Assembly (NCBI GenBank): GCA_046546105.1 | Contig: JBKGYN010000002.1 | Location: 10,913 to 74,912, forward strand | From: Candidatus Woesearchaeota archaeon | Lineage (GTDB): Archaea > Nanobdellota > Nanobdellia > Woesearchaeales > SKGA01 | Reading direction: 5' to 3' | DNA length: 64,000 nucleotides | Part shown: piece after piece, positions 2,313-58,433 of the stretch | Layout: each line of letters begins with the position of its first letter | Numbering within the stretch: the stretch's first letter is position 1 | The notes under the pieces: generated by a model | The model's input: the letters and a program-made list of their open reading frames with translations, nothing else | Told to the model about the DNA's origin: nothing | Databases searched by the model: none | Translations under genes and position numbers: made by a program

Positions 2313-2514
2313 CTCGCTCATTGAATATATATCCGCGTGCCTTGCCCTGTGGGACGACCATCAGCCCACAGCGAAAACAATACTTCTTTTAAGAAGCGAC
2401 ACTTAGTTTCCACTAAAAAATGGTTATGATTTCGAAACATTTAAATACGTGTTTTGAATGGTAATGAAACATAATACCTTTATGTTTAAAAAAACATTGG
2501 GGAGGACTTTAAAA

Positions 2515-3810: not shown

Positions 3811-3850
3811 GGGTCTCTTTTCTTTTTTCTTTACCTTTTTTTTCAGCTTG
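3811..3850 (+). terminator. oligo-T rich tract after the 2515..3810 gene
   Basis: tctcttttcttttttctttaccttttttttc. Confidence 0.4.
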
Positions 3851-3897
3851 CCTTAAAAAATGCTTTTTAGCATCTATGATTTATTGGGGGACGGGAC

Positions 3898-6699
3898 ATG
3901 CAACATTCAACTTTTTTCAAGACTTCGCTTCTTATTCTTGCCCTTGTATTCTCGCTTCTCGCCCTCATTCCGCACGTTCAGGCTCGGGATTCTATTGATG
4001 TGGAGAATCGAAGCGTCAATGCTGATTTTGAGATAAGTGCTTCTTTCAGGACATTGTCCTTATGCGAATGTGCGACCTCCACTCAGAACCTACAGGTCTC
4101 AAACCCTGGCTCTTATCCGATCACAGTCCATCTCGAGAGCGAGAATGGCTATGTCCGTTTCGCGCAGAGTGAAGTTCAGGTAGATCCTGGTCGTACCGAA
4201 ACGGTCATCGCCTACATCAAAGCGCCGTGTGACGCCCCTGACAAGGACACTATCCTTATCAAGGCGACATCTTCTCTTGGTAAGACCAAAGCTTTCACTC
4301 AAGATATCGAATTTTCCAACTGCCAGAACCTTCGTGCTGGTCTTGCTGAACGTGAAGTCAACGCGAGCGTCTGCCAACCATTCTCCACCTCCTTGACCGT
4401 CAAGAACACTGGTTCTTTCAGGGAGACTTACGAGATTGCTGCTGCTGATTTCTCCGACTCTATCGTCTTGAGTGAAGACCGAGTGACTCTTGATTCTGGT
4501 CAGACTAAGGATGTTTTCATCTATTATAACCTGCCTTGTGACATCTACGGGGAGCATGATGCTGACTTTATCGTCCGTGCTGTGAAGAACAATCGCAAAG
4601 CTACTTTGAAGCAGACAATCAACATCCCTCAAGACTATGCATTCTCACTTGATCTTCCATCGCAGATGCCTGTTTGCCAGGAAGATGAAAAATCGGACGC
4701 TTTCCGGTTTGCCTTTACAAACGACAATAATTTCACCGACACATACCGGATAAAGGAGGATCTTCCTTCCTTCGCTGATGATGATCTTCCTCTTGTCGGG
4801 AGATTTTTTCCTGAGACTGTCACTTTGAAGCCTGGCGAGGATTATGTGAAAAACATCTCGCTCTCCTCTCTCGATGACGTCGATGAAGGAACGTATCCGG
4901 TTTCGTTCACCGTGACTTCTCGAAACGGTGACGTGACAAAGACTGCCGCTGGTAACATCTCTGTCTCTGATTGTCATGGCGGGGCGCTGTCTTTCTCTGA
5001 CACGACCGACAAGCTCTACGCCTGCGCTCGAGATGACTTCTCGAAAGAGTTCACGATCGCTAACACGGGTTCTCAAGATAGTGATTACGAACTGCTCTTG
5101 AACGCGCCTGATTTCATGACATTACCTGCTGACAAGCTCTCTCTCGATGCTGGTGAGAACGAGTCTGAAGAGATGGGGCTTGTCATTCCTGATAACATCT
5201 CTATGGAATATCCTATTACCTTGGAGCTTTACGGTAAAGGAGGTCTGCTTGACACTGCTGGATTCACGCTCGTTGTCGATGATCGTGAAGAGTGTTACGG
5301 CGTCGGGCTTGACGATACCTCTCAGGACATGCTCTATACCAGTGATAACATCACCTTCAAGGTGACCAATGATGGTACTCGCCATGGCATCTACACTCTT
5401 GACATCCTCAACGCTTCTGGCGTTCTCGATCTCAGTGCTGGCGAGCTTGGTCTCGGCGCTACGGAGACAAAGACTCTCAATATCATTGTCGATAAGGACG
5501 AGCTGAAAAACGCTACTGCTTCTGATAGCGATCTCATCGGCACTGTTGTCGAAAAGACCTTGATGGTCACTCACGAGCAGTCCGGTCTTGTCACCTACGT
5601 CCCTGTCACTATCGAGATTGTTGATCATTCCATTTGGCACAAGGCGTGGTCATACCTCGCTTCACTGCCTGCCTGTACGCTCATATTCCTTTCCTTGGCG
5701 CTTATCTTTGTCATCTCGCTATTTATTCTTGCCCTGCGCTTGGCTTCCGCGAATCGGTTCTTCGCCGCTCGCTGGCAGGTCCTTCTCTGGGGTTTGGCCC
5801 TTGTCATCGTTGCCTTTGCAATAGTCAGTATCATCTATGGCTTTCCTGGGCAAAGCACTTTTTACACGCAATACAACCTGACCACTGACAGCCTCAATCA
5901 CGTCTTGATGGTCGAGGACAGTTCTTATACTTTCGATTATGATGAGTACTTCTTCGATCCTGACGATAACATCGAGACCTACGGTGTTCGTGATGTCAAC
6001 GAATCCATCCTTTCATTCAGCATCAACGGTTCTAACCTCACCATTACTCCTGTCGAGGATTGGTATGGTGCTACGGATATCGAGCTATTCGTCGTTGACG
6101 AGTACAACGAGAGCGCCTCAAGCGGTCCTGTCCTTGTTGAAGTCCTTCCTCGCGAGGATCACACCGTCGTGAGCTTTTTCAATGCCGGTTGTGAGTACTT
6201 CAACGTCGCGATGCTGCTTCTCGTCATCATCGTGATCTTTTTTGCCCTTTCCCTTCCGAAACGTCCTGTGAGCGCTTCCCGGAAAAAAGCTTCTGGGTCG
6301 CGGCGTATCACTGCATCGCGGACTCTCTCCAAGCGCAGGAAACGCTCTGTTAACAAGAAGTCTTCCAAGAAGACGAGTAATGCTTCCTCTTCAAAGAAAT
6401 CCTCTGGCAAGAATGCTAAGAAGAAAACATCGGGTTCGACTAAGAAGTCGTCTTCAAAGAAGACTGTGAGAAAATCTTCTGCAAAGACTTCGAAAACATC
6501 TTCGAGCAAGAAGACCGGCGCTAAGAAATCACCCTCAACAAAAGCGGCTGTTTCTGGAGCTGTTGGAAAATCGTCTTCCGAACCTGATTCAGAGAATTCT
6601 TCCGCTCAACAAGAGAGTGGCAAACAGGACTCTGCAAAGAGAACCTCTGGCGAGAGACCGGAGCAAGCGCTTGATGACGATCGCAACCAGGCTTCTTGA
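3898..6699 (+). CDS. large surface protein with CARDB/DUF11-like repeats, two TM segments and a Lys/Ser-rich basic C-terminal tail
   Basis: 933-aa ORF preceded by a GGGGGACGGG run; signal peptide; recurring N(P/T)GS / KNTGS / ANTGSQ / TNDGT motifs typical of CARDB-like beta-sandwich repeats; TM segments around aa 580-640 and 770-790; C-terminal about 130 aa almost only K/S/T/R (KKSSKKTSNASSSKKSSGKNAKKKTSGSTKKSSSKK...). Confidence 0.7.
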   Translation: MQHSTFFKTSLLILALVFSLLALIPHVQARDSIDVENRSVNADFEISASFRTLSLCECATSTQNLQVSNPGSYPITVHLESENGYVRFAQSEVQVDPGRTETVIAYIKAPCDAPDKDTILIKATSSLGKTKAFTQDIEFSNCQNLRAGLAEREVNASVCQPFSTSLTVKNTGSFRETYEIAAADFSDSIVLSEDRVTLDSGQTKDVFIYYNLPCDIYGEHDADFIVRAVKNNRKATLKQTINIPQDYAFSLDLPSQMPVCQEDEKSDAFRFAFTNDNNFTDTYRIKEDLPSFADDDLPLVGRFFPETVTLKPGEDYVKNISLSSLDDVDEGTYPVSFTVTSRNGDVTKTAAGNISVSDCHGGALSFSDTTDKLYACARDDFSKEFTIANTGSQDSDYELLLNAPDFMTLPADKLSLDAGENESEEMGLVIPDNISMEYPITLELYGKGGLLDTAGFTLVVDDREECYGVGLDDTSQDMLYTSDNITFKVTNDGTRHGIYTLDILNASGVLDLSAGELGLGATETKTLNIIVDKDELKNATASDSDLIGTVVEKTLMVTHEQSGLVTYVPVTIEIVDHSIWHKAWSYLASLPACTLIFLSLALIFVISLFILALRLASANRFFAARWQVLLWGLALVIVAFAIVSIIYGFPGQSTFYTQYNLTTDSLNHVLMVEDSSYTFDYDEYFFDPDDNIETYGVRDVNESILSFSINGSNLTITPVEDWYGATDIELFVVDEYNESASSGPVLVEVLPREDHTVVSFFNAGCEYFNVAMLLLVIIVIFFALSLPKRPVSASRKKASGSRRITASRTLSKRRKRSVNKKSSKKTSNASSSKKSSGKNAKKKTSGSTKKSSSKKTVRKSSAKTSKTSSSKKTGAKKSPSTKAAVSGAVGKSSSEPDSENSSAQQESGKQDSAKRTSGERPEQALDDDRNQAS

Positions 6700-6847: not shown

Positions 6848-8752
6848 ATGGCGGGCAGCAAGCTTTCTTTTCCGGTTATCCTCTTGATAACGATAAATAG
6901 TATTATGGGTACTGGGATCTTTTTCTTGCCGGCTGTCGGTGCTCGTGAAGCGGGATTGTTCGCTATCATCTCGTGGATTATCATGGGCTTTATAGCTGTT
7001 TATTTCAGCATGATCTTCGGCGAACTGGTCAGTCGCTATCCTAAAGAAGGTGGTGTCTACGAATACGCTAAAGAAGCCTTCGGCTTCTTCCCGAGCTTCC
7101 TGCTTGGTTGGATGACGCTCATCACTGCTAACATCACCATTGCCATGCTCATGGTCGGTGCTATCAAGTACGTCGGCTCTAACTTGAATAATATTTTCAT
7201 CGCTGGTCTTAGCATCTTGTTCGTCTTGATCTTCAATTTCATCGCTTTCAAGGGTTTGAGAACCGGTAAAGTGATGCTTCTGACTTTTGCCGGTTTGACC
7301 TTGACTACCGTCGGTGGTATTCTGATTCCTGGTCTTGCCGCTTTCAATCCTTCTAATTTCACTGGTTGGCTTTCTCACAGCGCCTTTTCCTCGCTTGATG
7401 CAGGTTTTGCAGGTCTGTTCAGTGGCGCTGCCATAGTTTTGGGGACTGTTTTTTTCATTGCTGAGACTTTTTTCGGTTGGGAGACGACCACCTTCCTGGC
7501 TGAACAGGTTCGTAACCCTAAGAAGATAATGCCTAAGGCCATGGTCGTAGGGACTGTTCTTATCGCTGTCATCTCTTTTCTCTTCGTCGTCGCAAGCAAG
7601 AGTATCTTGCACTGGAGCGAGCTCGCTTCTTCGATAACTCCTTTAGCCGACCTTGCAAGCACTATCTATGGTCCTTGGATTGTTCCCGTGTATAGTATCA
7701 TGGTCTATCTTGCTATCATAGGTAGTGTCGCTGGCTGGATTGTCGCCGCGCCGAACCTGCTTGTTGCCTTGTCTAAGGATCGTCTCTTCCCTCCTTCCTT
7801 TGCCCAGCCTCATCCAAAAACCGGCACTCCTTACAAAGCGATCATCTTCCAGACGATCGTGACTTCCGGTCTTATTGTCGTCGGTGCAGGTAGTTATGAG
7901 ACCCTCCTTCATCTCCTTGTTCCCATGCTCTTGATAATGTATGCGAGTGTGGTGTTGAGCTTGATTCTCATCCGGAGAAAACACCCTTCTTTTGACGGTT
8001 ACATCGCTCCTGGAGGCCGTTTCGGTCCTTCCATCCTCATAATGGTCACTCTCGGTCTGATTGCGATGTGGGTTACCAACCAGCCTGATGCAGTGCACAC
8101 GCTCCAGATAATCGCTGGTTTTGTCATCATCGGCATCCCTGTCTATCTCCTGATGAACTTCCATTACAATCCTCATGCGACTGTCTCTTTTCATAACAAG
8201 ACTGCTGAACTCTCCCGGCTTTTCGAGCGTCTCTTCCTCCCTTTGAAGATCCGTCGCCGACTCCTCGCCGGTCTGTCTGAACGTGAGCGCGTGCTCTTTC
8301 TCGGTGCTGGTTCTGGCGTTCTTATCAAGGAACTTCCTCATCCTGACGAGCACATCACCGTCCTTGAACATTCTGAAGTCCTTGCCAAACAGCTTTCGAA
8401 GCGTTTCCCTCACGTCCGTGTCATTTATGACAATCACGCAATCTCTCGGGTCCATCCTTCCATCGAGACTGCGGACGTTCTCATCAGCGTGAGTTTTCTC
8501 AGTCACATCCAGGACATCCCTTCCTATCTCAAGCACATCCACAGCGTCCTTCCTGAGAACGCCAAAGTCCGTTTCTTTGATTATGCTGATTTTTACAGGG
8601 TCATCCCTAACAGCATCCCTTCTGTTTCAAAGCTTCAGGAGATGTTTCGTGAGCACGGTTTTGCTGTGAAAGTGGAGAAGATCAAAGGCGTCTTATGGTC
8701 CTACTTGATCATTGAAGGTATCAAATCTGACTCTGCGGGTTTCTACATCTGA
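6848..8752 (+). CDS. APC-family amino-acid permease fused to a C-terminal class-I SAM methyltransferase-like domain
   Basis: ORF 6827..8752 (TTG) with probable ATG at 6848; about 12 TM helices with typical APC N-terminus (INSIMGTGIFFLPA, GELVSRYPKEGGVYEYAKEAFG); the last about 190 aa carry VLFLGAGSG (motif I), VLEHSE (post-I acidic) and ADVLISVSFLSH (motif II). Confidence 0.7.
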   Translation: MAGSKLSFPVILLITINSIMGTGIFFLPAVGAREAGLFAIISWIIMGFIAVYFSMIFGELVSRYPKEGGVYEYAKEAFGFFPSFLLGWMTLITANITIAMLMVGAIKYVGSNLNNIFIAGLSILFVLIFNFIAFKGLRTGKVMLLTFAGLTLTTVGGILIPGLAAFNPSNFTGWLSHSAFSSLDAGFAGLFSGAAIVLGTVFFIAETFFGWETTTFLAEQVRNPKKIMPKAMVVGTVLIAVISFLFVVASKSILHWSELASSITPLADLASTIYGPWIVPVYSIMVYLAIIGSVAGWIVAAPNLLVALSKDRLFPPSFAQPHPKTGTPYKAIIFQTIVTSGLIVVGAGSYETLLHLLVPMLLIMYASVVLSLILIRRKHPSFDGYIAPGGRFGPSILIMVTLGLIAMWVTNQPDAVHTLQIIAGFVIIGIPVYLLMNFHYNPHATVSFHNKTAELSRLFERLFLPLKIRRRLLAGLSERERVLFLGAGSGVLIKELPHPDEHITVLEHSEVLAKQLSKRFPHVRVIYDNHAISRVHPSIETADVLISVSFLSHIQDIPSYLKHIHSVLPENAKVRFFDYADFYRVIPNSIPSVSKLQEMFREHGFAVKVEKIKGVLWSYLIIEGIKSDSAGFYI

Positions 8753-8943
8753 TTCTGGTGGGTGGGGGTGATATCCTCATTTGCTTTTGGTGCCTGTCTT
8801 TCTCGAAACTTCTGCTGCATATTGACTGGGACGAAAAGATGCCAAATGGGGACGCTGGGATTCCACGAGCTGATTCGTCCAGCTGTACCGGGGTGCGCCT
8901 CGCTACTGCTCAGCAGCACGAATTACATCATTGATTGTGCTTA

Positions 8944-9115
8944 GAGAGGGTGCCAACACTTTTGTGTTGAGCATGTTCAAATACCAGCTACTTTTCAAGA
9001 AGAACCTGGGGACGCTGGGATTCCCTTGAACTTTGTGAGAGGGTGCCAACACTTTTGTGTTGAGCATGTTCAAATACCAGCTACTTTTCAAGAAGAACCT
9101 GGGGACGCTGGGATT
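8944..9115. repeat. tandem direct repeat (93-bp period, 79-bp perfect copies at 8944-9022 and 9037-9115), each ending with the 3'-terminal 15 nt of tRNA-Trp
   Basis: The 79-bp string gagagggtgccaacacttttgtgttgagcatgttcaaataccagctacttttcaagaagaacctggggacgctgggatt occurs twice with identical spelling; copy 2 overlaps the tRNA-Trp 3' end; a third copy of ggggacgctgggattcc lies at about 8851-8867. Confidence 0.85.
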
Positions 9116-9235
9116 TGAACCCAGATCAGCCGGTATCTTCTGAATAGATTGATAATCATCGCCTTCATAGCCATGAAGACTCATCGCTCCATCCAACTGG
9201 AGCCGGCTATTCTGCCGGATTATACTACGCCCCCG
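9101..9235 (-). tRNA. tRNA-Trp (anticodon CCA) with an approximately 61-nt intron after position 37
   Basis: Minus-strand read: acceptor GGGGGCG/CGTCCCC, T8A9, T-arm CTGGG-TTCAAAT-CCCAG, anticodon stem GCCGG/CCGGC with loop CTCCAG interrupted by an insert; the intron start TTGGATGGAGC pairs back onto GCTCCA, as expected for a bulge-helix-bulge splice site. Coordinates within 1-2 nt. Confidence 0.7.
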
Positions 9236-9401
9236 TGTGTTCAGGCAGTTGATTTGGAGCCCTATCAGCTTTATAAATATTACTCCCTTCCGTTTCCTTT
9301 TTTGTCATTCTCTCTTTCGTGCCTTCATAGAAAGACTTATAAATACTTTTTAACTGTGTCCTTTTACAACACGATTTCATTGTAATGCATTATAGAAAAG
9401 G

Positions 9402-10034
9402 GTGGTTAGTATTAATAAGCGTCAGAAAGAATTGAATGATGATATAGGATCGTATCTTGAAAGGCGTCATTCTGGTGATTCCTCTGGTTCATCTTCTTTT
9501 TTCAAGAGAGTGGAGAGTCTGATTCCTTCGCGTGCCGGTTCGGAATCGGTTCCTGATATGCATGATACAGAGGCGACGGTCTATGACAAGCCTAAGAAGA
9601 AGCGTTTCTCTTTGCTCTCGATTTTCTCTCGTGGCTCTCGTGATCCGAAAGAATATGAAGAAGGTGATGAGGAGCTTGATGAGAGTGATCGCGAAGGCCT
9701 TCAGGAACTTGAGCATGAGATTGATGATGTCGAGCAGCAGTCTGAAGAGCTTGAAGAGAAACGTTCAGGGCTTTTCAGCCGGTTATTTTCCTTTCTTAAT
9801 TTCGGCGGTCGTTCTCGTGGGGAGTATGAGGAGGACATTCCTGAAGATCAGGTCAAGGAACAGTTGAAAGCCCAGGAAGAGAAGGATTCCTTGTATAAGG
9901 AGACTCGTGAGACTCTCAAGATCCTTCACAAGTGGATTAATCGTTTGCCTCCGCAGCAGATTGAGGCCTTCAAGAGATCGCCTGACTTCCAGAAGTATAA
10001 GGAATTGCTTGACAAGTATAACCTCATCAAGTGA
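9402..10034 (+). CDS. hypothetical acidic coiled-coil protein
   Basis: ORF with GTG start; highly charged (EEGDEELDESDREGLQELEHEIDDVEQQSEELEEKRSG); no recognisable domain; start uncertain. Confidence 0.4.
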   Translation: MVSINKRQKELNDDIGSYLERRHSGDSSGSSSFFKRVESLIPSRAGSESVPDMHDTEATVYDKPKKKRFSLLSIFSRGSRDPKEYEEGDEELDESDREGLQELEHEIDDVEQQSEELEEKRSGLFSRLFSFLNFGGRSRGEYEEDIPEDQVKEQLKAQEEKDSLYKETRETLKILHKWINRLPPQQIEAFKRSPDFQKYKELLDKYNLIK

Positions 10035-10077
10035 TCCTTTTTTTCTTTCACTATTTTTTTCTCTTGTTCGTATTATT
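10035..10077. terminator. T-rich intergenic tract between convergent genes
   Basis: cctttttttctttcactatttttttctcttgttcg between the + gene ending at 10034 and the - gene ending at 10078; archaeal terminators are oligo-T tracts. Confidence 0.35.
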
Positions 10078-11286
10078 TCATTTCGAAGCCATGATTTCTA
10101 TTATGTCCAAATGTTTGAGGACATGGTCTTTTCCTACGGGTCGTTTCGTTCTCACGTCGATCGCTTTCACGAAATTCCTGCCGAAGTCGCTGTGTAGCCT
10201 GTAGGCGAAGTCCAGCGCCGTTGCATCCTTTTCCATGAGAAAACAATCTGGTAGGACATTGCCATCCTGATCCTCGAGCTTGTTCGCTCCTCCTGGGTGG
10301 ATGGCCTTGTGCTCGAGTGTCGTGAAGACGACCTCATCAAGAACGTGTTGCACGCCCGTTCCTGTCTCATAGCTGTCAAGAAGTGATGTTCTCAAGAACT
10401 TTAGCGCTTGCTTTTGCTTCTCGCTCATCTTCTCCTCGCCTTTGTCCGTAATCGAGAATCCGGTTTCACCAGGAACATAATCGATAAGATCGTTTTTTGC
10501 CGCTTCCTTGAGGGCTAGCTCTCCTTCTGCCGAGCATGGGATGATACTGTATTCGGGGAATTGCTTATGGAGTTTCTTGATATTCTTTGGCGCTGTCTTG
10601 TGATCGCACTTGTTCGCTGCGATGATCATTGGCTTGCTCTCTTTTCGCAGTACCCTTGATAGGGTTAGCAAATCCTCTTCAGTCCATTCTCGTGCGGGCT
10701 TTTTATCCAACCCTGTCATTTTCACACCGTCTTCGGCGATCTCTTCTCTCACGCCGACACCGCTCATCTGCTTGGCGATTGCCTTGTGTATTTCTCGTTT
10801 TTCCTGCTGCACGACTCTCGTGAACTTCTCCCAGCCCTTGGCAAGGATGTTCTTGAACCAGTGATCGAGCTCGAGCTCGAGAAACTCAACATCGCGTGTA
10901 GGATCGTAGCTTCCTGCTTCCACCGCCTCTCCTCGTTCATTAACGCTGCCTGATGCGTCAATGACGTGTATGAGAGCGTCTGCTTGGTTGAGATCATCGA
11001 GGAATTGGCTACCCATCCCTTCGCCCTTGTGAGCATCTGGAACCAGCCCTGCAACATCAAGCAGATCCACTGGCACGAATCGCCACTCCCTTTGCACGTA
11101 GCCCATGCGGGGATTGGCCGTCTTGCCGAATTCTTGTGCCACATCCTTTATCTTGACAAAGCCCACTGCCTTGTTAGGGTCGATGGTCGTGAACGGGTAA
11201 TTCGCGATATCCGCTTCTGAAAGGGTTGCTGCCTTGAAGAACGTGCTTTTTCCGACTGATGGTTTTCCGACGATTCCTATGATCAT
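10078..11286 (-). CDS. Obg-like ATPase of the YchF/OLA1 family (GTP-binding protein with C-terminal TGS domain)
   Basis: N-terminal P-loop GKPSVGKSTFF, G2 FTTIDPN, G3/G4 motifs; C-terminal TGS-like segment (GKDHVLKHLDIIEI). Confidence 0.8.
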   Translation of the reverse strand: MIIGIVGKPSVGKSTFFKAATLSEADIANYPFTTIDPNKAVGFVKIKDVAQEFGKTANPRMGYVQREWRFVPVDLLDVAGLVPDAHKGEGMGSQFLDDLNQADALIHVIDASGSVNERGEAVEAGSYDPTRDVEFLELELDHWFKNILAKGWEKFTRVVQQEKREIHKAIAKQMSGVGVREEIAEDGVKMTGLDKKPAREWTEEDLLTLSRVLRKESKPMIIAANKCDHKTAPKNIKKLHKQFPEYSIIPCSAEGELALKEAAKNDLIDYVPGETGFSITDKGEEKMSEKQKQALKFLRTSLLDSYETGTGVQHVLDEVVFTTLEHKAIHPGGANKLEDQDGNVLPDCFLMEKDATALDFAYRLHSDFGRNFVKAIDVRTKRPVGKDHVLKHLDIIEIMASK

Positions 11287-11421
11287 GATGCTTTCACCGT
11301 TGCCTTATCTGGTTTTTCCTGTATCCGGACGCTGCCTTGAAGATGAGGTGTTCTTCTTAAATCTTGTGTGTGCATTTTTTGTGGACAAGTTTTTTATACT
11401 CTTTTGTGTTCGTGGATTGCA

Positions 11422-16017: not shown

Positions 16018-16214
16018 ATGATGATATTAAGGATCCTTCGTTGCCATAGTCCCTGCAGGAGATCTGTTGCGACTTTGCAGGGGATACTGACACTTTCACT
16101 GGGTGCTTCTTCCTTATTTAAGTTTTGTTATTTCTGGTCTTCGGTGCCCACTTGTTATTGTATTGTGTTTGCAGCACAATGTTTTTAAATACCTCTCACT
16201 GCAGACAACCTCAT

Positions 16215-18812
16215 ATGGAAGATATTGTTGTAGGGCGCAGTAAATCTGACTTGAAAAAATACGGGATGAAAGGCGCTATCTTCGTTGGTAAGCATTACAT
16301 CTCTATGGGTACCACTACAACGCTTTCTAACAATGTATATATGGACGTTGCCGGCGCTCACGTCGTTTTCATCTGCGGCAAGCGTGGCGGCGGAAAATGT
16401 CTGACTGGCGATACTCTTATCTCTCTTGCTGACGGTCGGGAAGTCCCTATTGCAGATCTTGAGCACATCGACCAGGATATTGTCGCTCTGAACGATGATT
16501 TGAAAGTGCAGCATGCTGGCAAGACTGAGTTTTTCAAACGCGAAGTCTCGAAATTACTCAACATCCGGCTACGTAGTGGCAAGGAATTGCGTTTAACGCC
16601 GGAACATCCTTTACTGACCGTTTCAGGTTGGAATGAAGCATCTGCTTTGAAAGAAGGCTCGCGTATAGCGACTCCTCGAAAATTGCCTTCATTTGGAGAA
16701 CACGACCTTCCTGAAAACGAAGTGAAAATCCTTGCTTATTTGCTTGCTGAAGGGCACTTATCCAATGGGTTTATCCTGTTCTCGAATACTGATTCGCTTA
16801 TCATGGCTGATTTCAGGAGCGCTCTTCAATCTTTTGACGCATCCTTAGATGTTAAACAGCATGGTGAAGGGTGTGTTCGGGTCATATCTTCTGGTGTGAG
16901 ACGAACAATTGTGAACTCCTCACGTAACGAAAAGGGACAATTCGGTAAAGGAGTCGTTTTCGATAAGAAATCTTCATTGCGCAAATATCTCGAGAGTGCA
17001 GGATTATATGGGTACAAGGCAGATCAACGGGTTCTTCCTGATCGTATCTTCCAGTTGCCCAAGCGCAAACTGGCATTATTCCTCAATCGTCTTTTTAGCT
17101 GTGATGGTACTATCTATCGTGATGGTAACAAGGACTCTTGGATAGTGAGCTATTCTTCAGCTTCTAAGAAGATGATCTATCAGATTCAGAATCTGTTATT
17201 GAAATTCGGTTTGCTTTCCCGCGTTCGTAAGAAGCAACAGAACGGGTTTACCAGTTATGAACTGGGTCTTCATGAAATCCATGTCCATTGGTTCCTTCAG
17301 GAAATTGGTTTTTTCGCTGATAAGAAACATCGCCAAGAACAAGCTCTTCGCAGCACTAAACAGCATAATCCTAATATTGATACGATTCCTCGAGAAATCT
17401 GGGACACGTATCGTCCGAAAAATTGGTCTGAAGTGGGTAAAGAACTCGGTTATAAGACTCCTAAATCTGCACGATCCTCGATCAGGCATTCTCCCTCTCG
17501 CCAGAAACTCGCTTGTATAGCGCGGTCAGATGGTAGTGTTGAAACAGGATTGCTTGCCGAATCCGATATCTTCTGGGATGAGATTGTTGACATCACTGAA
17601 GAGAACGGTACGTTCACCGTATATGATATCAGTGTTCCCGAGCATCATAATTTTGTTGCAAATGGCGTTATCGTCCATAACAGCTACACGATGGGTGTTA
17701 TCGCTGAAGGCTTTCACCTTCTTGAAAAGGCTATCAAGGAGAATCTTTCTGTCATCCTTCTGGACACGATGGGTATCTATTGGACGATGAAATACCCGAA
17801 CCACCAGGATAAAGAGCTTCTTGAAAAATGGGGTCTCAAGCCGCAATCGATTCCTGTCAAGATCTTCACGCCGGAGAAATACTATCACATCTACAAGAAG
17901 CAAGGCATTCCTACTGACGTTCCGTTCACGATGAATCCTGCAGACCTGGATCCTGACGATTGGTGTAATGCCTTCAGGGTCGATAAGTACAGCTCCCGAG
18001 GCATCCTCATCAACCGGACCATCCTTGATCTCAAGAAATCCGGTGAGAACTTCCAGATTCACGATATCATCAAGCGTATCAAGGAAGATCAGGATTCTGA
18101 GAAAGAGGATCGTGACGCTGTCATTTCCATGTTTCTCATGGCTGATAATTGGGGTGTCTTCTCGGAGCACGGCACGCCCCTTCACGAACTGGCTAAAGGC
18201 GGCCAGATCACCGTGCTTGACGTTTCCTGCTACGCGACCATGCCTGGTGGTTGGGATGTCAAATCGCTCATGGTAGGCCTTGTCGGTCAGCGTCTGTTCA
18301 TCGAGAGGATGGAATACCGTAAGGGCGAGGAATATGAGTCTGTCAGCAGCGCCACTAACTTCTTCAGTTCAGATGCTAAGAAAACGCAGGACATGCCTCT
18401 GGTGTGGCTTGTTATTGACGAGGCTCATGAATTCCTTCCTCGAAACGGTAAGGTCGCTTCTACCGATGCCCTTGTCACGATCATGCGCGAAGGTCGTCAG
18501 CCGGGTATTTCCCTCATTCTCGCGACCCAGCAGCCCGGTAAGATCCACACGGATGTCATGACGCAGTCTGACACTGTCCTCTCTCACCGGATCACTGCGA
18601 AGATGGATGTTGATGCTCTCGGGATGCTCATGCAGTCCTACATGCGTGAAGGCTTGACTGGTGAGCTTGACAAGCTTCCTCGTGAAAAAGGTGCTGGTGT
18701 GCTTTTCGATGATAATAATGAGAAGATGTATCCTATCAGGATTCGCCCTCGTTTCACCTGGCACGGAGGTTCGAGCCCTACAGCCGTCCCGGAGGATAAA
18801 GAAGAGCGATGA
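16215..18812 (+). CDS. HerA/FtsK-superfamily (DUF87-like) ATPase interrupted by an intein in the P-loop
   Basis: ORF 16125..18812 with probable ATG at 16215; extein Walker A GKRGGGK|S is split by the intein; Walker B VWLVIDEAHEF; LILATQQPGKIH (HerA/VirB4-type TQxP motif). Extein about 467 aa. Confidence 0.75.
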   Translation: MEDIVVGRSKSDLKKYGMKGAIFVGKHYISMGTTTTLSNNVYMDVAGAHVVFICGKRGGGKCLTGDTLISLADGREVPIADLEHIDQDIVALNDDLKVQHAGKTEFFKREVSKLLNIRLRSGKELRLTPEHPLLTVSGWNEASALKEGSRIATPRKLPSFGEHDLPENEVKILAYLLAEGHLSNGFILFSNTDSLIMADFRSALQSFDASLDVKQHGEGCVRVISSGVRRTIVNSSRNEKGQFGKGVVFDKKSSLRKYLESAGLYGYKADQRVLPDRIFQLPKRKLALFLNRLFSCDGTIYRDGNKDSWIVSYSSASKKMIYQIQNLLLKFGLLSRVRKKQQNGFTSYELGLHEIHVHWFLQEIGFFADKKHRQEQALRSTKQHNPNIDTIPREIWDTYRPKNWSEVGKELGYKTPKSARSSIRHSPSRQKLACIARSDGSVETGLLAESDIFWDEIVDITEENGTFTVYDISVPEHHNFVANGVIVHNSYTMGVIAEGFHLLEKAIKENLSVILLDTMGIYWTMKYPNHQDKELLEKWGLKPQSIPVKIFTPEKYYHIYKKQGIPTDVPFTMNPADLDPDDWCNAFRVDKYSSRGILINRTILDLKKSGENFQIHDIIKRIKEDQDSEKEDRDAVISMFLMADNWGVFSEHGTPLHELAKGGQITVLDVSCYATMPGGWDVKSLMVGLVGQRLFIERMEYRKGEEYESVSSATNFFSSDAKKTQDMPLVWLVIDEAHEFLPRNGKVASTDALVTIMREGRQPGISLILATQQPGKIHTDVMTQSDTVLSHRITAKMDVDALGMLMQSYMREGLTGELDKLPREKGAGVLFDDNNEKMYPIRIRPRFTWHGGSSPTAVPEDKEER
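16398..17681 (+). mobile_element. intein (Hint domain with LAGLIDADG homing-endonuclease domain), 428 aa
   Basis: Begins Cys (CLTGDTLISLADGREV) immediately after GGGK and ends VHN followed by Ser (+1 nucleophile); two LAGLIDADG-like motifs (LAYLLAEGHL, LNRLFSCDGTIY) in the middle. Confidence 0.75.
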
Positions 18813-22774: not shown

Positions 22775-24460
22775 TTATTCCTGGTAGTGATTGAGGTCTG
22801 TTTGCCCGCTTCGTTTTTTTGGCTTCGCTTGCATGGCTTTTGCGTCCTCTTCCTCTCCTTGCTGCTCTTCCACCTTCTCGCCGGCTTCTTCTTTGAGTTG
22901 CCGTGCGGTTTTCGGTCCGATTATTTCTTTGAGCTTTTCCATCTGCGCTTGCTTCACGTCCTTGACACTCGTGATACCGTGTGCGTGAAGCGTTCTCGCT
23001 CTCACTCGTCCGATGCCTTTGAACTTGAGAAGCGTGATAAGCTCGGAGCGTACCCCGTGTTTCGTTCGCAAAGCGATGTGTCGTAATATTGAAAGCAATC
23101 GTTTTTTCTTTGTCACTCGTGCCAGTTCCTCGCAGGCGTACATGAGCCACTCTCCCCGTTGGAGCTTGATCGTGATCTCTCCCGGTCTGATGCCGTACTT
23201 GTCAAGAAGCTGTTGTTCTGAAAACTCGTTGGACCAGTCGTTGAGAAAAGAGGCTGTCAGGATAGTGTCTTCATAATCGTCTTGCGAATACTCGTAGAAA
23301 TCATTCTCATCAAGCAGTATGAGTTCCTGCTCGTCCATGATGTTTTCCACCAGTTCTACAGCGCTTGTTTTCATGCGCAGCAACGGTCGCATCTCAAGAG
23401 AGCAGGAGATGAGGTGTTGCACGGCAAAGGTCTGCTCTTCATCCTCCTTGCTGCGCAGTTCTTTCTCCAGTCTCGACATCCCTTCAAGAATCAGGTGTGC
23501 GGTGAGTGGATCGAGATAGATCTCTGAAACCCTCTGCCCGAGCGGTGTTGCAACAAGCTTCTCCTCTTCATTAGCTTGTTGTTCCGCGCCATACATCTCG
23601 CTTGCCGTGACGAATATGCTGCTTGACTCTTCGCTTCCTTGCTTTTCCTGTTCTTCTTGCTCGAGAAACTCCCATTTCTTGAGGAGTTTGATCATCTTCG
23701 TGAGTGTTGCGATGAGCCGTTTCATGTTCCCGAACTGCTTTGCATAGAACGTCTCGCTGAAGAAGTCGATGAGCTCTTGTTTTGTCGTGATGATTTCTGT
23801 TGCCACGAGGCTTAAGATATAGGTTCGTAGCACTGGTTCCACTGCGAGCTTTGAATGGATGTCCTCGACAATCCCGTGGATGTAGGTTTCTGTCAATCGT
23901 TCGATCTCCTCCTGGTTTCCTGCAACCAGTATCGCTTCCCCGTATTCTTCCATTCCCGGACGCCCGGCCCTGCCTGCCATCTGCAGGTATTCGAGAACGG
24001 GAATCGGTGCCATTCCTTGTCCGCTGAATCGCTTGTGATCCCTGATTACTGCTCGAAAAGCTGGGAGATCGAGACCTGCTGCCAGTGTTGGTGTTGAGCA
24101 GATGACTCTGATGGTTCCATCCCGGAATGCTTGTTCTATAAGTGTGCGTTGTCCTGACGGTAATCCTGCGTGATGGAATGCTATCCCTTTACGAAGACAG
24201 GCTGCGAGTCTCTTGCATTGTTTTGTGGGATGCGCGAGTACGTCAAGCGCCTTATCTGCCACACCATCAAGCACTTCGCTTCGCACTTCCTGTTCTTCTT
24301 TTCTCCCTTTTGCTATTTTTTCAGCCTGGCTTTCAGCAGCTCGTTTGCTTGCGCAAAACACCAATGCTTGCTTGCCAAGCGCTATAGTATCAAGACAAAG
24401 TGCTGTTGTCTGGTCAGAAGACCCTTTACGGATAGGTTTTGCTCTCATGCGTGAAATCAA
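22775..24460 (-). CDS. Hel308/Ski2-like helicase, C-terminal portion only (RecA2, winged-helix, ratchet/HhH); N-terminal RecA1 domain absent
   Basis: Motif IV ALVFCAS, motif V STPTLAAGLDLPA, motif VI QMAGRAGRPG, then a Sec63-like ratchet and C-terminal HhH (GIGRVRARTLHAHGITSVKDV); the ORF starts at TTG and an in-frame stop lies 15 nt upstream; no Walker A/DEAH anywhere upstream. Confidence 0.7.
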   Translation of the reverse strand: MISRMRAKPIRKGSSDQTTALCLDTIALGKQALVFCASKRAAESQAEKIAKGRKEEQEVRSEVLDGVADKALDVLAHPTKQCKRLAACLRKGIAFHHAGLPSGQRTLIEQAFRDGTIRVICSTPTLAAGLDLPAFRAVIRDHKRFSGQGMAPIPVLEYLQMAGRAGRPGMEEYGEAILVAGNQEEIERLTETYIHGIVEDIHSKLAVEPVLRTYILSLVATEIITTKQELIDFFSETFYAKQFGNMKRLIATLTKMIKLLKKWEFLEQEEQEKQGSEESSSIFVTASEMYGAEQQANEEEKLVATPLGQRVSEIYLDPLTAHLILEGMSRLEKELRSKEDEEQTFAVQHLISCSLEMRPLLRMKTSAVELVENIMDEQELILLDENDFYEYSQDDYEDTILTASFLNDWSNEFSEQQLLDKYGIRPGEITIKLQRGEWLMYACEELARVTKKKRLLSILRHIALRTKHGVRSELITLLKFKGIGRVRARTLHAHGITSVKDVKQAQMEKLKEIIGPKTARQLKEEAGEKVEEQQGEEEDAKAMQAKPKKRSGQTDLNHYQE

Positions 24461-24475
24461 GAACGGGTGTTGTGT

Positions 24476-24745
24476 TTAAAGGTTTTTGCTCTCGCCATAC
24501 AAGAACATTGCCCCATCGACAAGACTTGTTGTTATGAGTATTCCCTCGATAGTCAGCCATCCTGTAAGACCTAGGCTTAATGCGACGACACTATTCACGA
24601 TAAATAGTGTTATGAGAGAAAGCGCTACATGTTCAGTCGTTGTTCCTTTTCGCTTCCGGAACCAGCGAATGCTTATTGGCGCGGGGAGAATCGCCGTGAT
24701 AATCGCTAGTATGTGTATTGCCGAAATCATATCTTCATATTCCAT
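24476..24745 (-). CDS. small hypothetical membrane protein
   Basis: 89-aa ORF with 2-3 hydrophobic helices; could be spurious. Confidence 0.3.
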   Translation of the reverse strand: MEYEDMISAIHILAIITAILPAPISIRWFRKRKGTTTEHVALSLITLFIVNSVVALSLGLTGWLTIEGILITTSLVDGAMFLYGESKNL

Positions 24746-32631: not shown

Positions 32632-34590
32632 ATGGTGGTCCGGGCTAATTTCAGAACTCTTGTCTTATTGCTTGTTTTCCTGCTTAGTGTGCAGACTGGC
32701 TTTATAGTCTATCACGCGGTTGAAGTCATCTCGCCTGATATTCATGCCCGGGCGAGCGCGGGTATGTTCTCGCTATGTCTCAACTATCAGCCTGAATTCA
32801 ACTTCACCTGCAACACTTCTATGCGCCAGAACCATGATTATCATTGCCAGCTCAATTATTCTGACCCTGACAATGATTCTGTAACTTTTTTCTATGAGAA
32901 CCTCTCTGGATTTTTTGAAGCTGAGATCACCGATGATGGTGTCCTGACTGCAAATCCTGATCAGGAGATGGTAGGTGAGAGGGACGTGCTCATCGGTGTA
33001 GTTGATGAGAAGAATTGCTCAAACAGTGAAGCTGCTGAAAACGTGACTTTCGAGATTGAAAATGTCAACGACCCTCCTGAATACTATCGTCAGATAAGTG
33101 ATCTCGAATGGTCTCTTGACGAGACTTTCAGGGGTATCTTTCTCAAGGATTATTTCAGGGATCCCGATGGTGACCCGCTCTCCTACTCGCATTCTTTCTC
33201 ATCATCACAGTTTTCTGCCGACATCATATCCAGTTCTGAAGTTATTTTTTCCGCTGATGAGTGTGGCGAGGGTTATGTGACCTTCACTGCGTCAGATCCA
33301 TATAATGAGACTGCGCAAAGCCATATCATCAAAATCAATGTTCCTTGCGAGGAGCCTGAATCTTCATCCGGCGGTTCTGCCGGATCTACTTCCCCTGAAG
33401 AGTGCATTCCGGAATGGCGGTGCAAGGATTGGAGCGAGTGCTATCCTAACGGCACGCAAAAACGGCAATGTACAGATATCCATGGTTGTAGTGAGGATTA
33501 CAAGCGGAATTTCTGGAGGGAGTGCGAATACATTCCTCAATGTGAAAACGGTATTCAGGATCCTGACGAAGAAGGTGTTGATTGCGGTGGTCCTTGTCCT
33601 CCTTGTGAGACATGCGATGATGGTATCCTGAATAACCAAGAGGAAGAAGTCGATTGCGGCGGTCCGAACTGCCCTCCTTGTAAGAATTGTTCTGATGGTA
33701 TTCAGAACTATGGTGAGACTGGTGTTGATTGCGGTGGTCCTTGTCCTCCTTGTGAGACATGTGATGATGGTATCCAGAATCAGGGCGAGACTGGTGTTGA
33801 TTGCGGTGGTCCTTGTCCTCCTTGTCCTGATACTGAGACTCCCGCGCCTGTTGATGATCGTTCGTGGCTCACTGCAGTCCTCATCCCTATAGTGCTTGGT
33901 CTCACGGGCCTTGCTGTCATTTACCGGCTGTTCCGGAGGAGTATTCACGCTTTTGCTGCGAGGATGTGGTGGTATTTCACCAGTAAGGTGCCCAAACAGG
34001 TGCTTCTCACGGAAAATCAGAAGTCGTATTTGTTCAACGAACTTGATCGACTTCTTGGTGAGCAGCATGGCTCTTCTGACCTGGACGAATTCCAGGATGA
34101 TCTGGCTATCCTTTTCAGGAAGTTCTACTCATATCTGATTGATGAAGCCTATGATCTTGAAAATGCCAAAGAGAAGATCGTGCAGTTGAAGACGGTCAAG
34201 GAAGTGAAAAAATTCCTCGTCACGGGATACTCTGTCACGCTTGGTATTGAAAAGACCAAGAAGATGTCTCGGGAGATGCTTGATGTCCATGCTGAACTCC
34301 TGCGTGAGCTTGTGATTTCTCTAAGTAGGGTTGATCGTGAAGAGATTGCAAGAGTTCTTGATGAAAAGACTCCTGCTGAAAAACCAACGCTCTCTAACGT
34401 GCTTGGCTTCTTGTATAACAGCATTCTTGCCTTGCAGTTCAGCGAGATCGAGATCTCCAAAGAGAAATATCTTAAAGCCTTGTATCTCTATGAAGCCCTT
34501 CCTGTAAGTGATCAGGAGAACGTGTATTCGACGCTTCATCTGACATTCGGTCTTATCAGCTACGTCTCATCTTACGCTTCCAAGAAATGA
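32632..34590 (+). CDS. cell-surface protein: cadherin-like domain, four Cys-rich tandem repeats (CGGPCPPC), TM helix, cytoplasmic alpha-helical domain
   Basis: Signal peptide; VNDPPEY cadherin-like motif; 4 x about 31-aa units C-x2-C-x-DGI-x-N-x-(G/E)E-x-(G/E)VDCGGP(N)CPPC; TM LTAVLIPIVLGLTGLAVIY; about 220-aa cytoplasmic tail. Confidence 0.65.
   Translation: MVVRANFRTLVLLLVFLLSVQTGFIVYHAVEVISPDIHARASAGMFSLCLNYQPEFNFTCNTSMRQNHDYHCQLNYSDPDNDSVTFFYENLSGFFEAEITDDGVLTANPDQEMVGERDVLIGVVDEKNCSNSEAAENVTFEIENVNDPPEYYRQISDLEWSLDETFRGIFLKDYFRDPDGDPLSYSHSFSSSQFSADIISSSEVIFSADECGEGYVTFTASDPYNETAQSHIIKINVPCEEPESSSGGSAGSTSPEECIPEWRCKDWSECYPNGTQKRQCTDIHGCSEDYKRNFWRECEYIPQCENGIQDPDEEGVDCGGPCPPCETCDDGILNNQEEEVDCGGPNCPPCKNCSDGIQNYGETGVDCGGPCPPCETCDDGIQNQGETGVDCGGPCPPCPDTETPAPVDDRSWLTAVLIPIVLGLTGLAVIYRLFRRSIHAFAARMWWYFTSKVPKQVLLTENQKSYLFNELDRLLGEQHGSSDLDEFQDDLAILFRKFYSYLIDEAYDLENAKEKIVQLKTVKEVKKFLVTGYSVTLGIEKTKKMSREMLDVHAELLRELVISLSRVDREEIARVLDEKTPAEKPTLSNVLGFLYNSILALQFSEIEISKEKYLKALYLYEALPVSDQENVYSTLHLTFGLISYVSSYASKK
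33560..33840. repeat. near-identical approximately 93-bp tandem repeats (4 units) encoding the Cys-rich modules
   Basis: gttgattgcggtggtccttgtcctccttgtgagacatg(c/t)gatgatggtatcc recurs; units 3 and 4 are almost identical at the nucleotide level. Confidence 0.8.
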
Positions 34591-39899: not shown

Positions 39900-41561
39900 A
39901 TGGTTGAACTGTATGGGTGGCAAGAGGATGCGCTTGACTCCTTGCGCGATCACGATTATAATGGCGTTATAAAGGTTGCATCCGGTAAAGGCAAGACTAT
40001 TCTGTCATTAGCCGTTCTTGAAGAACTCTTTCGAGACTATCCTGGCACTCGAGCGCTCGTTGTCGTGCCGACCATCCATTTGATGTACCACTGGGATAAA
40101 GAGATCAAGCGCTTCCTGCCTGATGTTTCCACCAGTTATTACTACGGTGCCAAAAAAGACCTATCCGGTCAGGTAGTCCTTTCTGTCATCAACTCTGCAG
40201 CTGTGGCTGGTTTTAAGCCGGATTCATTCCGTATCAAGATCCTTGACGAGATCCACCACTACGGCGCTGAACTTCATGCCGGCATCTTCTCTGTCCAGAC
40301 CCTTCACACGATCGGTCTCAGTGCCACTCCTGAGCGAGAGGATGAAGGTGATCTCGCCATCCGCTTCGGTGCTGGTGGTATCGTCTACAGTCTTGATAAT
40401 CTTGATGAATTGAGGGAGCGCTTCTCTTTGTGTACTGTTCGCATCCCTCTCACGGGTGCTGAATATGGTCGTTACAACGATCTTCGCGGTGAGTATCGTA
40501 GGATGCTTGCCATCACTGGCATGAATCCTGGCCAGGTCGAGTATAAGGCTAGGCGCGGCAGCAAGTATGCTCTTCGCGTCCTCAAGCTCTGGAGTCAGAT
40601 GGCTTGGATCCGGCATCACGCTACTTACAAGCTTCCTGCTGTCAAGCGTCTTGTCAAGGCAGAATCTGATCAGAAGATCATTATCTTCAGCGAGTCCATC
40701 GAATTTGCAGAAAATGTGGGTCGTGTGCTTGATGCTATTGTTGTCCATAGCAAGATGGCGAAATCAGAGGTGAAAAGACGCCTTGAAGAGTTTCGGGCTA
40801 AAGACCGTGCTGTGTTGGTCGCTCCGCGCATGATTGATGAAGGGTATGATGTTCCTGACGCCACGATTGCTATCATTGCCAGCTTCAGGCGCTCTGCCCG
40901 TCAGATGATTCAGCGTGACGGTCGTATCCTCCGGACTAAAGATTACGTCCGCCGTTACACGCTCGTCATCGAAGGGGTTGAGGAGGAGAAATTCGCATCG
41001 TTATTGCAAAAGACCGCGATGGCAGAGATCGCGTTCCAAGGAACCTGGCTTCGCTTCCATGACGGCTTTGCCGAGGATAAGTCCTTTCTCGAGCAGTGCC
41101 GGGAATATATCAACCACGATTCTGCTTCTGACTATGAGGATTGGGTTCGTGGCAAGCTTGATTTCTACAAGCGTGCCCGCACTTTTGACAGCACCTTTTA
41201 CGAGCGTCACAAGACTGTCATCGACCGCCTTGTTGAAGAGCATCCCGGCCGCTGGCCTGATCTCGAGACTGACTCGTCACGCCCATCCTCTGTTGACTTC
41301 CACAGCGATCTTCCTGGGGATGAGCAGCGTGTTTTGAAAGACGAGCTTCGCAGTGTCAACGCTCGCATCGGTCTTCCTGATAACGTCTTTCGCGCTCTCA
41401 TGCGCGCTATCGAGGGCGAGACTATCGAGCTTGATGATGAGGTTCGCCAGTTCGTCCGTGACATCGCCTCGCAGACGCCTCCCTCAAAAGGCAATGAGAA
41501 TTCCTTATGGACTGACGAGCTTCACGCTCTCATCAAGCGCTTGGATGAGAATATTAATTGA
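39900..41561 (+). CDS. SF2 DEAD/DEAH-box helicase (XPB/Rad25- or type-III-Res-like) with a C-terminal extension of about 200 aa
   Basis: Q-motif WQEDA, Walker A ASGKGKT, DEIHH, SATPERED, HSKMAKSEVKRRLEEFR, motif VI QMIQRDGRILR. Confidence 0.7.
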   Translation: MVELYGWQEDALDSLRDHDYNGVIKVASGKGKTILSLAVLEELFRDYPGTRALVVVPTIHLMYHWDKEIKRFLPDVSTSYYYGAKKDLSGQVVLSVINSAAVAGFKPDSFRIKILDEIHHYGAELHAGIFSVQTLHTIGLSATPEREDEGDLAIRFGAGGIVYSLDNLDELRERFSLCTVRIPLTGAEYGRYNDLRGEYRRMLAITGMNPGQVEYKARRGSKYALRVLKLWSQMAWIRHHATYKLPAVKRLVKAESDQKIIIFSESIEFAENVGRVLDAIVVHSKMAKSEVKRRLEEFRAKDRAVLVAPRMIDEGYDVPDATIAIIASFRRSARQMIQRDGRILRTKDYVRRYTLVIEGVEEEKFASLLQKTAMAEIAFQGTWLRFHDGFAEDKSFLEQCREYINHDSASDYEDWVRGKLDFYKRARTFDSTFYERHKTVIDRLVEEHPGRWPDLETDSSRPSSVDFHSDLPGDEQRVLKDELRSVNARIGLPDNVFRALMRAIEGETIELDDEVRQFVRDIASQTPPSKGNENSLWTDELHALIKRLDENIN

Positions 41562-57956: not shown

Positions 57957-58433
57957 TTCGTTGCGTTGAGTGGTTTTCGGGTTTTTTGAAAGTTTTTAAG
58001 GTTCTCTTTTTAGATTTTGATTTGTTTTTGTCGTTTTTTAGAGTTTTTTGTTTGTAATGGAGTTTTTATGATTGTTTAAAAACTTAAAATAGTCTTTTTT
58101 AGTTTAAAGAAGATTAAATAAGTTTTATTTTGTGTTATGGATTTTTGAAGTTCTTAATTCATTGTATATAACTATTTTCTTTCGTATAGAAACGTTTATA
58201 AATACCAGTGGTTGAATTTGTTGTATAACGTTGTGTGTGAGGTGTATTACTGATAATTCCTACAAAAGAAGAGTTTCTGGATTTTCTGAAAGATAACCCT
58301 CATCAGACATACACCTCTATTTCTAAGCATTTTGACATTGAGATGGGCACGGTGCGTGATCTAGTCCGGTTTTATGGTGACGAGCTCAAGATCCGAAAGA
58401 TAGGGACTGCATTGATGGTGGACGTGAAAGAAT

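Follow-up and report, generated by a model that had tools for sequence, protein, structure and literature searches.

The DNA analysed in this work is a 64-kb window (64,000 nucleotides) of contig JBKGYN010000002.1, assigned to a Candidatus Woesearchaeota archaeon. Its minus strand carries an open reading frame (ORF) for a Hel308-type DNA helicase of superfamily 2 (SF2), from which the whole first motor domain (RecA1) is missing, and an ORF for a small membrane protein lies directly upstream of it. Comparing the helicase ORF with its relatives in protein databases, genomes and metagenomes, we consider it very likely that it encodes the C-terminal subunit (C-half) of a two-gene (split) Hel308, that the N-terminal half (N-half) is encoded elsewhere in this genome, and that the complex of the two works as a helicase.

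The helicase gene and its domains

Stop to stop, the ORF is bounded by two TAA codons, one upstream at 24478-24476 and its own stop at 22777-22775, and no internal stops or frameshifts are found in it. An earlier, sequence-only reading of this DNA had described it as lacking the whole RecA1 domain, and the domain searches agree: Pfam recovers domains 2-5 only (Table 1), with neither a DEAD nor a ResIII domain, and phmmer, run against PDB sequences, pairs residues 20-531 with 228-704 of Hjm (2zj2, 720 amino acids (aa); expectation value (E) 1e-72), the Hel308 entries 2p6r, 9b15 and 2va8 being aligned likewise. The first aligned stretch, which includes the winged helix, reaches Hjm residue 473, and the second pairs residues 299-531 with Hjm 474-704. 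A variable acidic insert (residues 267-298) precedes the ratchet domain, and a low-complexity tail of Lys and Glu follows the helix-hairpin-helix (HhH) domain.

The fold tells the same story as the sequence. An AlphaFold model of the C-half, built on 49 homologues, has a mean predicted local distance difference test score of 86, and the fold search returns Hjm/Hel308 structures (2zj8, 2p6r and 2va8) as top matches, with E 1e-28 to 1e-24 and over 500 columns aligned; the Pol theta helicase domain and Brr2 come next. RecA1 is missing in full from the window protein, while RecA2, winged helix, ratchet and HhH domains are all present and in the Hel308 order. By sequence and by fold the protein is a Hel308 orthologue; since RecA1 is absent, it falls outside the definition of a single-chain Hel308.

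The earliest possible start of the ORF is the TTG at 24460, which gives 561 aa, and the next is the ATG at 24448, which gives 557 aa. The sequence-only reading was right to name the TTG as the first start, but wrong to place it inside motif IV: the N-terminus of the protein lies in the RecA1-RecA2 linker, with ~25 residues between it and motif IV, and in a full-length relative (P0137) the alignment opens at residue 225. The conserved start of the hel308 C-half is most likely the ATG, because it is the start in the NCBI annotation (P0001) and because an equivalent Met is present in the closest relative (locus L087, 82% identical).

Table 1. Features of the helicase gene and of the DNA directly upstream of it (window coordinates; residue numbers refer to the helicase protein).
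Feature	Position	Strand	Remarks
Small membrane protein	24476..24745	(-)	89 aa, 2 predicted transmembrane (TM) segments; directly upstream, same frame; no Pfam match
TTTAAA	24475..24480	(-)	32 nt upstream of ATG 24448; overlaps the TAA stop
Extra codons if TTG is used	24449..24460	(-)	4 codons, TTG ATT TCA CGC; probably not translated
Putative C-half of split hel308	22775..24448	(-)	557 aa + TAA stop; Hel308 domains 2-5 without RecA1
RecA2	23936..24421	(-)	residues 14-175 (561-aa numbering); Pfam Helicase_C, E 1.9e-13
Motif IV	inside RecA2	(-)	KQALVFCASKR
Motif IVa	24161-24178	(-)	FHHAGL
Motif V	24059-24097	(-)	STPTLAAGLDLPA
Beta-hairpin		(-)	residues 143-152; strands E143-146 and E149-152 in the AlphaFold model
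Motif VI	23954..23983	(-)	QMAGRAGRPG; arginine fingers
Winged-helix domain (Hel308 domain 3)	23663..23941	(-)	residues 174-266; Pfam HTH_61, E 4e-6
Ratchet domain (Hel308 domain 4)	23054..23566	(-)	residues ~299-469; Pfam Helicase_dom4_arc, E 6.3e-23
Helix-hairpin-helix (Hel308 domain 5)	22880..23035	(-)	residues 476-527; Pfam HHH_5, E 4e-10

The C-half is intact, widespread and under selection

A gene that begins abruptly in a linker could be an artefact, and the sequence-only reading had raised both an assembly breakpoint and a truncated pseudogene. The first of these would be a chimera of unrelated contigs joined near 24470, for which the abrupt start of the homology speaks and nothing else. 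The same junction is, however, repeated in four further contigs of this organism, which stem from four samples or assemblies, two from metagenome-assembled genomes (MAGs) at NCBI (JBKHHB010000003.1 and JBKHFU010000009.1) and two from independent Logan assemblies (SRR21542053_48051 and SRR19844286_246428), which match the window at 99.88-99.99% identity over 10-21 kb with an identical helicase gene, and the gene order is the same in the relatives L087 and L171. We regard the chance of a chimera as vanishingly small. Three NCBI MAGs of Candidatus Woesearchaeota archaeon also carry a 100% identical protein (P0001), under the name "helicase-related protein" (MFP4118540.1, MFP4195518.1 and MFP4645166.1). 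The helicase gene carries no single-nucleotide polymorphisms among the four further contigs, against ~1.5 expected, which is uninformative.

Between the window and L087, the ratio of non-synonymous to synonymous substitution rates (dN/dS) is ~0.08 overall, 0.05-0.13 in the individual domains and 0.07 in RecA2, values which are approximate since dS against L087, the only close relative, is 1.49 and thus near saturation. Across 49 C-halves (45-82% identity), the motifs FHHxG (IVa), TLAxG..P (V) and Q.xGRxGRP (VI, with the arginine fingers) are invariant, the invariant columns being F95, H96, H97 and G99 in the first, T125, L126, A127, G129 and P133 in the second, and Q160, G163, R164, G166, R167 and P168 in the third; in longer form the invariant motifs read FHHAGL, TPTLAxG.D.PA and QMxGRAGRP. 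These results show that the C-half is under purifying selection.

The architecture is also shared. All of the 120 closest homologues in a database of 5.8 billion proteins lack PF00270 and carry Helicase_C plus domain 4 (490-690 aa, 44-100% identity), and those with a named source belong to Woesearchaeota, Nanoarchaeota or Nanobdellota. In a scan of the species representatives of GTDB (described below), each of the 30 C-half ORFs in the best 80 loci has 479-694 aa from stop to stop, starts as ...(I)NLALDT..K.KQALVF and has no RecA1. A decaying, 5'-truncated remnant of hel308 would account for the loss of the first ~225 codons of a normal gene, but not for an intact frame, a low dN/dS in every domain, invariant catalytic motifs, or an architecture common to all of these homologues and loci, and we hold it to be extremely improbable.

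An exhaustive search of 1.84 billion cluster representatives returned three kinds of relatives, namely C-half-only proteins, full-length Hel308 and intein-bearing forms. The full-length relatives (P0137, P0143, P0151 and others) have 700-750 aa, are 42-44% identical to the window protein and are found outside the clade. As to the inteins, the cluster representatives include forms of ~1000 aa (C-half plus intein) and ~1200 aa (full-length plus intein), and in some C-halves, such as that of the relative P0125, the intein sits within motif VI (..LEYEQM|C...HN|CGRAGRPG).

A stand-alone RecA1 family ends where the C-halves begin

If the C-half is one piece of a split protein, the other piece should exist as a separate RecA1. 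A profile (A2) made from the RecA1 domains of six full-length relatives matched almost only stand-alone proteins of 215-230 aa with a DEAD domain and no other, from Woesearchaeota/Nanoarchaeota and annotated as "DEAD/DEAH box helicase"; the other named top matches are Aenigmarchaeota proteins, all annotated as partial. A second profile, made from N-halves of higher-GC lineages and biased to the amino-acid composition of this organism, added ~100 stand-alone proteins of the same kind. Many of these N-halves are not truncations at contig ends, since they sit mid-contig on contigs of 50-550 kb.

The RecA1-only proteins carry the part of the motor that the C-halves lack. Walker A is present in all 275 N-halves collected, which is in part a selection effect, and DE[IV]H and SAT are likewise found in 275 of 275, with the Q, Ia and Ib motifs in almost all. 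Their lengths peak at 220-222 aa, and 80% of the 275 end 15-16 residues past WRPV. In the best 80 GTDB loci, all 51 N-half ORFs (217-243 aa) stop after ...WRPVxLxxGxxxxxxxxF and none runs into RecA2. Against full-length P0137, N-halves cover residues ~16-222/225 and the window protein residues 225-713; P0151 and P0154 are tiled in the same way, by N-halves to ~222 and C-halves from ~225. The two families therefore tile the full-length protein without gap or overlap, and the point at which they meet lies in the RecA1-RecA2 linker. The families are also similar in size among the candidates scored (4423 N-half and 4302 C-half matches, both counts including full-length Hel308). Clustering of the N-halves in search of a sub-family matching the C-half sub-lineage of the window gave no usable structure.

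Both halves in related genomes, and their separate neighbourhoods

We scanned 185,579 species representatives of GTDB with artificial fusions of the two halves, N(1-120)+C(85-215), and with one sequence pattern per half (CTPTASGKT and SKLAVEPVL), the query having been tried first on a viral collection. At least 586 of the 600 matches listed encode a relative, and the best 80 loci, with their 51 N-half and 30 C-half genes, were analysed. Both halves occur in one of these loci (L163, CAZGZA010000017.1), where the N-half (7427..8107) and the C-half (9773..11374) lie on one contig and one strand, ~1.7 kb apart. The gap (8115..9676) holds a gene for a protein with a PIN_9 (PIN-like) domain and a Na+/H+ exchanger gene, on the strand opposite to the halves; this spacing could go back to the original fission or have arisen by a later rearrangement. 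Two further MAGs carry both halves on different contigs: JAWAAW01 has them on contigs 2 (N-half, L152) and 8 (C-half, L109), and CAZHRT01 on contigs 35 (N-half, L137) and 15 (C-half, L153). The pair P0326 and P0016, tried as N-half and C-half by their source signature, was rejected, the two coming from different samples.

Elsewhere the halves keep apart. No N-half was found within 10 kb on either side of the C-half in 80 metagenome loci, and the neighbours of the two genes differ. N-halves are accompanied by FtsY in 39 of the 51 loci and by prefoldin in 34, and also by ScpA-like, PRPP synthase and GalT-like genes. C-halves have as neighbours Trm5, PAN and an RNA-binding protein, with Dus, Trm5 and PAN in the window, L005 and L171; the order small membrane ORF, C-half, (Dus), Trm5, PAN is kept in L087 (82% identity) and in L171 (55%). 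Genes typical of the N-half neighbourhood are absent from the 64-kb window. The halves are non-adjacent, each in its own conserved neighbourhood, and their separation is stable. One breakpoint, two stable locations and a wide distribution point to one ancient fission, which divided hel308 at the linker between RecA1 and RecA2 and is shared across the clade of Woesearchaeota and relatives.

Some of the labels attached to these loci are odd. A typical Woesearchaeal N-half (L141, JAFCCF010000017.1) is on a contig binned as a "Candidatus Aminicenantes bacterium" MAG, and many other loci are labelled "uncultured Methanosarcinales archaeon"; both are likely to reflect contamination at the binning stage or wrong taxonomic labels in public records.

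The search for an N-half in this organism

One of the options of the sequence-only reading was a split gene of the Nanoarchaeum type, with the N-half encoded elsewhere, and a RecA1-only family of ~220 aa that ends where the C-halves start, together with the presence of both halves in three related MAGs, speaks for it. That reading had also proposed to look for an orphan DEAD/DEAH ORF of about 200 aa; such an ORF (~220 aa) was found in relatives, but not for this organism, in the 64-kb window and 10 kb beyond it.

Several observations weigh against a split Hel308 in this particular genome. No Hel308-type RecA1 is present in the 64-kb window by a six-frame scan with a Walker-A regular expression, and neither tblastn with six real RecA1 domains nor the N-half hidden Markov model (run with --max in six frames) finds a RecA1 there. 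There is no N-half in the 10 kb to the left of the window (L086), and that of this organism is not among the 240 N-halves listed, including those from the composition-biased profile search. The three same-genome pairs all come from sub-lineages whose C-halves are ~42-46% identical to that of the window, two of the three depend on MAG binning, and the sub-lineage of the window itself (window, L087, L171, L005 and L006) is represented by no verified pair. To these points must be added the near saturation of dS, mentioned above. This organism is not among the best 80 genome loci, the closest entry there being L087, and one candidate for its N-half (P0456) was rejected, since it belongs to another MAG (GCA_964628525.1).

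The same negative results can be turned into a different explanation, namely that the C-half is an orphan. In that case the RecA1 partner would have been lost in the sub-lineage, and the remaining protein would serve as a DNA-binding or scaffold factor, or would borrow a RecA1-like domain from another ATPase. The N-half hidden Markov model finds no N-half in the loci of the closest relatives (L005, L006, L087, L088, L093 and L171) any more than in the window and L086, and the sub-lineage has a peculiar conserved partner of the C-half, the small membrane protein just upstream, both of which fit this explanation. The loci searched, however, span only 7-64 kb each, and N-halves normally lie far from C-halves. 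Motifs IVa, V and VI make sense only beside an ATP-loaded RecA1, and yet they are invariant, with RecA2 under the low dN/dS given above; the similar sizes of the N-half and C-half families also argue against loss, and nothing favours a C-half working with another ATPase, as the sequence-only reading had also considered. An orphan C-half is in our view improbable, and we infer that this organism carries an N-half elsewhere in its genome.

The small membrane ORF upstream

As the sequence-only reading had noted, the in-frame TAA (24478-24476) precedes the helicase start and the small upstream membrane protein, on the same strand, is unrelated to the helicase; the TAA is the stop codon of this 89-aa ORF. 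The small ORF is near-identical in L087 (3985..4278, 97 aa), and in L171 (2717..3004, 95 aa) it is 25% identical (E 8e-6) and overlaps the C-half start by 4 nt (ATGA). The small proteins that adjoin C-halves have 89-97 aa and 2-3 predicted TM segments, are co-oriented with the helicase gene, and occur in the window's sub-lineage only; a 2-TM ORF lies upstream of the C-half in 11 of 98 loci, five of which are this same organism. The small membrane ORF and the helicase half probably form an operon. The hexamer TTTAAA might act as a TATA-like element of the archaeal kind and give rise to a leaderless transcript of the C-half; the hexamer and the length of the 27-nt spacer are common to the window and L087, but the hexamer also lies within the coding end of the small ORF.

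The arrangement allows for yet another product. The two ORFs are in one frame, separated by one TAA and nine sense codons in a 27-nt spacer without a further stop, so that read-through or recoding of the TAA would yield a membrane-anchored fusion of the 89-aa ORF with the helicase part. The same in-frame 27-nt arrangement occurs in L087, although L087 is so close that a common frame is weak evidence. In L171, on the other hand, the ORFs overlap by 4 nt in different frames; the upstream ORF is absent from most C-half loci; the window and L087 do not share a conserved spacer sequence, whereas the coding sequence on either side of it is conserved; and no suppressor tRNA was found in the window. 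Such a fusion is very hard to credit.

Proposed mechanism of a two-piece Hel308

In single-chain Hel308, the 3' tail is surrounded by a ring made up of RecA1, RecA2 and the ratchet domain, with the winged helix packed against RecA1. The P-loop of RecA1 binds ATP, which the arginines of motif VI in RecA2 sense, and a beta-hairpin in RecA2 splits the duplex. The mechanism that we propose for the split protein follows this arrangement. An ancestral single hel308 gene would have come apart at the linker that joins its two RecA-like motor domains, and a gene of ~220 codons would now supply RecA1, with the Q motif, Walker A (motif I), Ia, Ib, DEIH (motif II) and SAT (motif III), while a second, unlinked gene of ~500-560 codons would supply RecA2 (motifs IV, IVa and V, the beta-hairpin and motif VI), the winged helix, the ratchet and the HhH domain. 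The two products would associate non-covalently, with RecA1 docking on RecA2 and on the winged-helix/ratchet scaffold as it does in the single-chain protein, and domain 1, through its extensive contacts with domains 2-4, would keep the heterodimer from falling apart. The ATP site would be rebuilt across the interface, with the P-loop and DEIH contributed by the N-half and the arginine fingers by the C-half. Such a composite site is presumably still in use, because the invariance of motif VI in the C-halves and of motifs I and II in the N-halves would otherwise be hard to explain. By analogy with the single-chain enzyme, the halves should associate physically and have helicase activity, and the heterodimer would be an ordinary 3'-to-5' DNA helicase acting at stalled forks.

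A further possibility is that the split is in use as a control, the activity of Hel308 being set by the supply or localisation of one half, since the ATP site would form only on contact of the two subunits, or that RecA1 works with more than one partner. Control of this kind would fit with the different operons in which the halves are found: the N-half lies with FtsY/prefoldin, and the C-half among genes for tRNA modification and the proteasome, in the window downstream of the small membrane ORF. We consider this unlikely; if true, however, it would mean a naturally modular, trans-assembled SF2 motor.

Comparison with known split and single-chain helicases

The nearest characterised proteins are Hel308/Hjm themselves (2P6R, 2ZJ2/2ZJ8 and 2VA8). 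Domains 2-5 of the window protein are colinear with their residues ~228-704, at 31-33% identity in the structural comparison; motifs IV-VI, beta-hairpin, ratchet and HhH are all present, and the C-half and N-half together tile the whole chain. The characterised proteins are, in contrast, single chains of ~690-750 aa, whereas here RecA1 is a separate polypeptide from an unlinked locus, and the ATPase cleft would therefore be intermolecular. The eukaryotic Pol theta helicase-like domain/HELQ and the Brr2 cassettes, the next-best matches in sequence and structure, share the Ski2-like fold but are only 21-24% identical, single-chain and equipped with additional domains.

Splitting as such has precedents. 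In reverse gyrase, the split separates two functional modules, helicase and topoisomerase, whereas the cut in Hel308 runs through one catalytic unit and parts the two lobes that build its ATP site. Reverse gyrase (NEQ318/434), alanyl-tRNA synthetase, DNA polymerase and Dph1/2 are among the split genes reported for DPANN archaea, where splitting is seen as a derived trait of reduced genomes (PMC6349945, PMC3655853). The Hel308 halves resemble these cases in being two ORFs that jointly cover an information-processing protein which is a single chain in other archaea, and, with motifs conserved in both halves, they form a split gene of the DPANN type. The closest parallel comes from Nanoarchaeum equitans (NEQ003/NEQ409) and Nst1 (Nst172/239), in which the "large helicase-related protein" (Lhr) is split. 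Lhr, too, is an SF2 repair helicase built on a RecA1-RecA2-winged-helix-domain 4 core, and in these DPANN archaea its two pieces come from separate genes (Table 1 of PMC3655853). Lhr does not belong to the Hel308 family, and these organisms are Nanoarchaeales, another order. The Lhr split sites differ between N. equitans and Nst1 (PMC3655853), which implies independent or recent events; the Hel308 split, unlike them, has one conserved breakpoint across hundreds of Woesearchaeal species.

In searches of 8 million full texts no paper was found that links Hel308 with Woesearchaeota or describes a split Hel308, a 2024 survey of archaeal Ski2-like helicases mentions no split Hel308, and Hel308 is not on the published DPANN split-gene lists that were searchable. 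What is new here is the clade-wide split of hel308; Hel308 itself and DPANN split genes were already known. The split indicates that an SF2 helicase motor divided between its two RecA lobes can survive, under purifying selection, throughout a very large clade of archaea, and it would offer a natural two-piece Hel308 in which to study the communication between the lobes. It would also be an addition of single origin, clade-wide, to the DPANN split genes, and could serve as a phylogenetic marker for the clade. In practical terms, surveys that look for full-length Hel308 would score such genomes as having none or having fragments, length-based completeness or "frameshift" checks would be affected likewise, and the current names, "DEAD/DEAH box helicase" and "helicase-related protein", leave the two halves unlinked.

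Other features of the window

The only other SF2 helicase in the 64-kb window is a complete, unsplit XPB/Rad25-like protein of 553 aa (39900..41561, plus strand; ResIII/DEAD, Helicase_C and ERCC3_RAD25_C). An 895-aa ORF (16125..18812, plus strand) contains an intein at residues ~99-519, with Intein_splicing and LAGLIDADG homing endonuclease domains; its C-extein matches the HerA/DUF87 ATPase, and the syntenic gene of L005 encodes an intein-free DUF87 protein of 444 aa. Rfam calls a tRNA at 9100..9234 (minus strand; 135 nt for a 71-nt model, 42 bits) where ARAGORN finds none, and this is probably an archaeal tRNA with an intron. A giant surface protein is encoded at the right edge (58381..64000, plus strand), by an open frame of at least 1,873 codons that continues beyond the window and has a signal or TM segment at its N-terminus, and further large secreted proteins, immunoglobulin-like or CARDB-like, are encoded at 2458..6699, 32632..34590 and 44599..48450.

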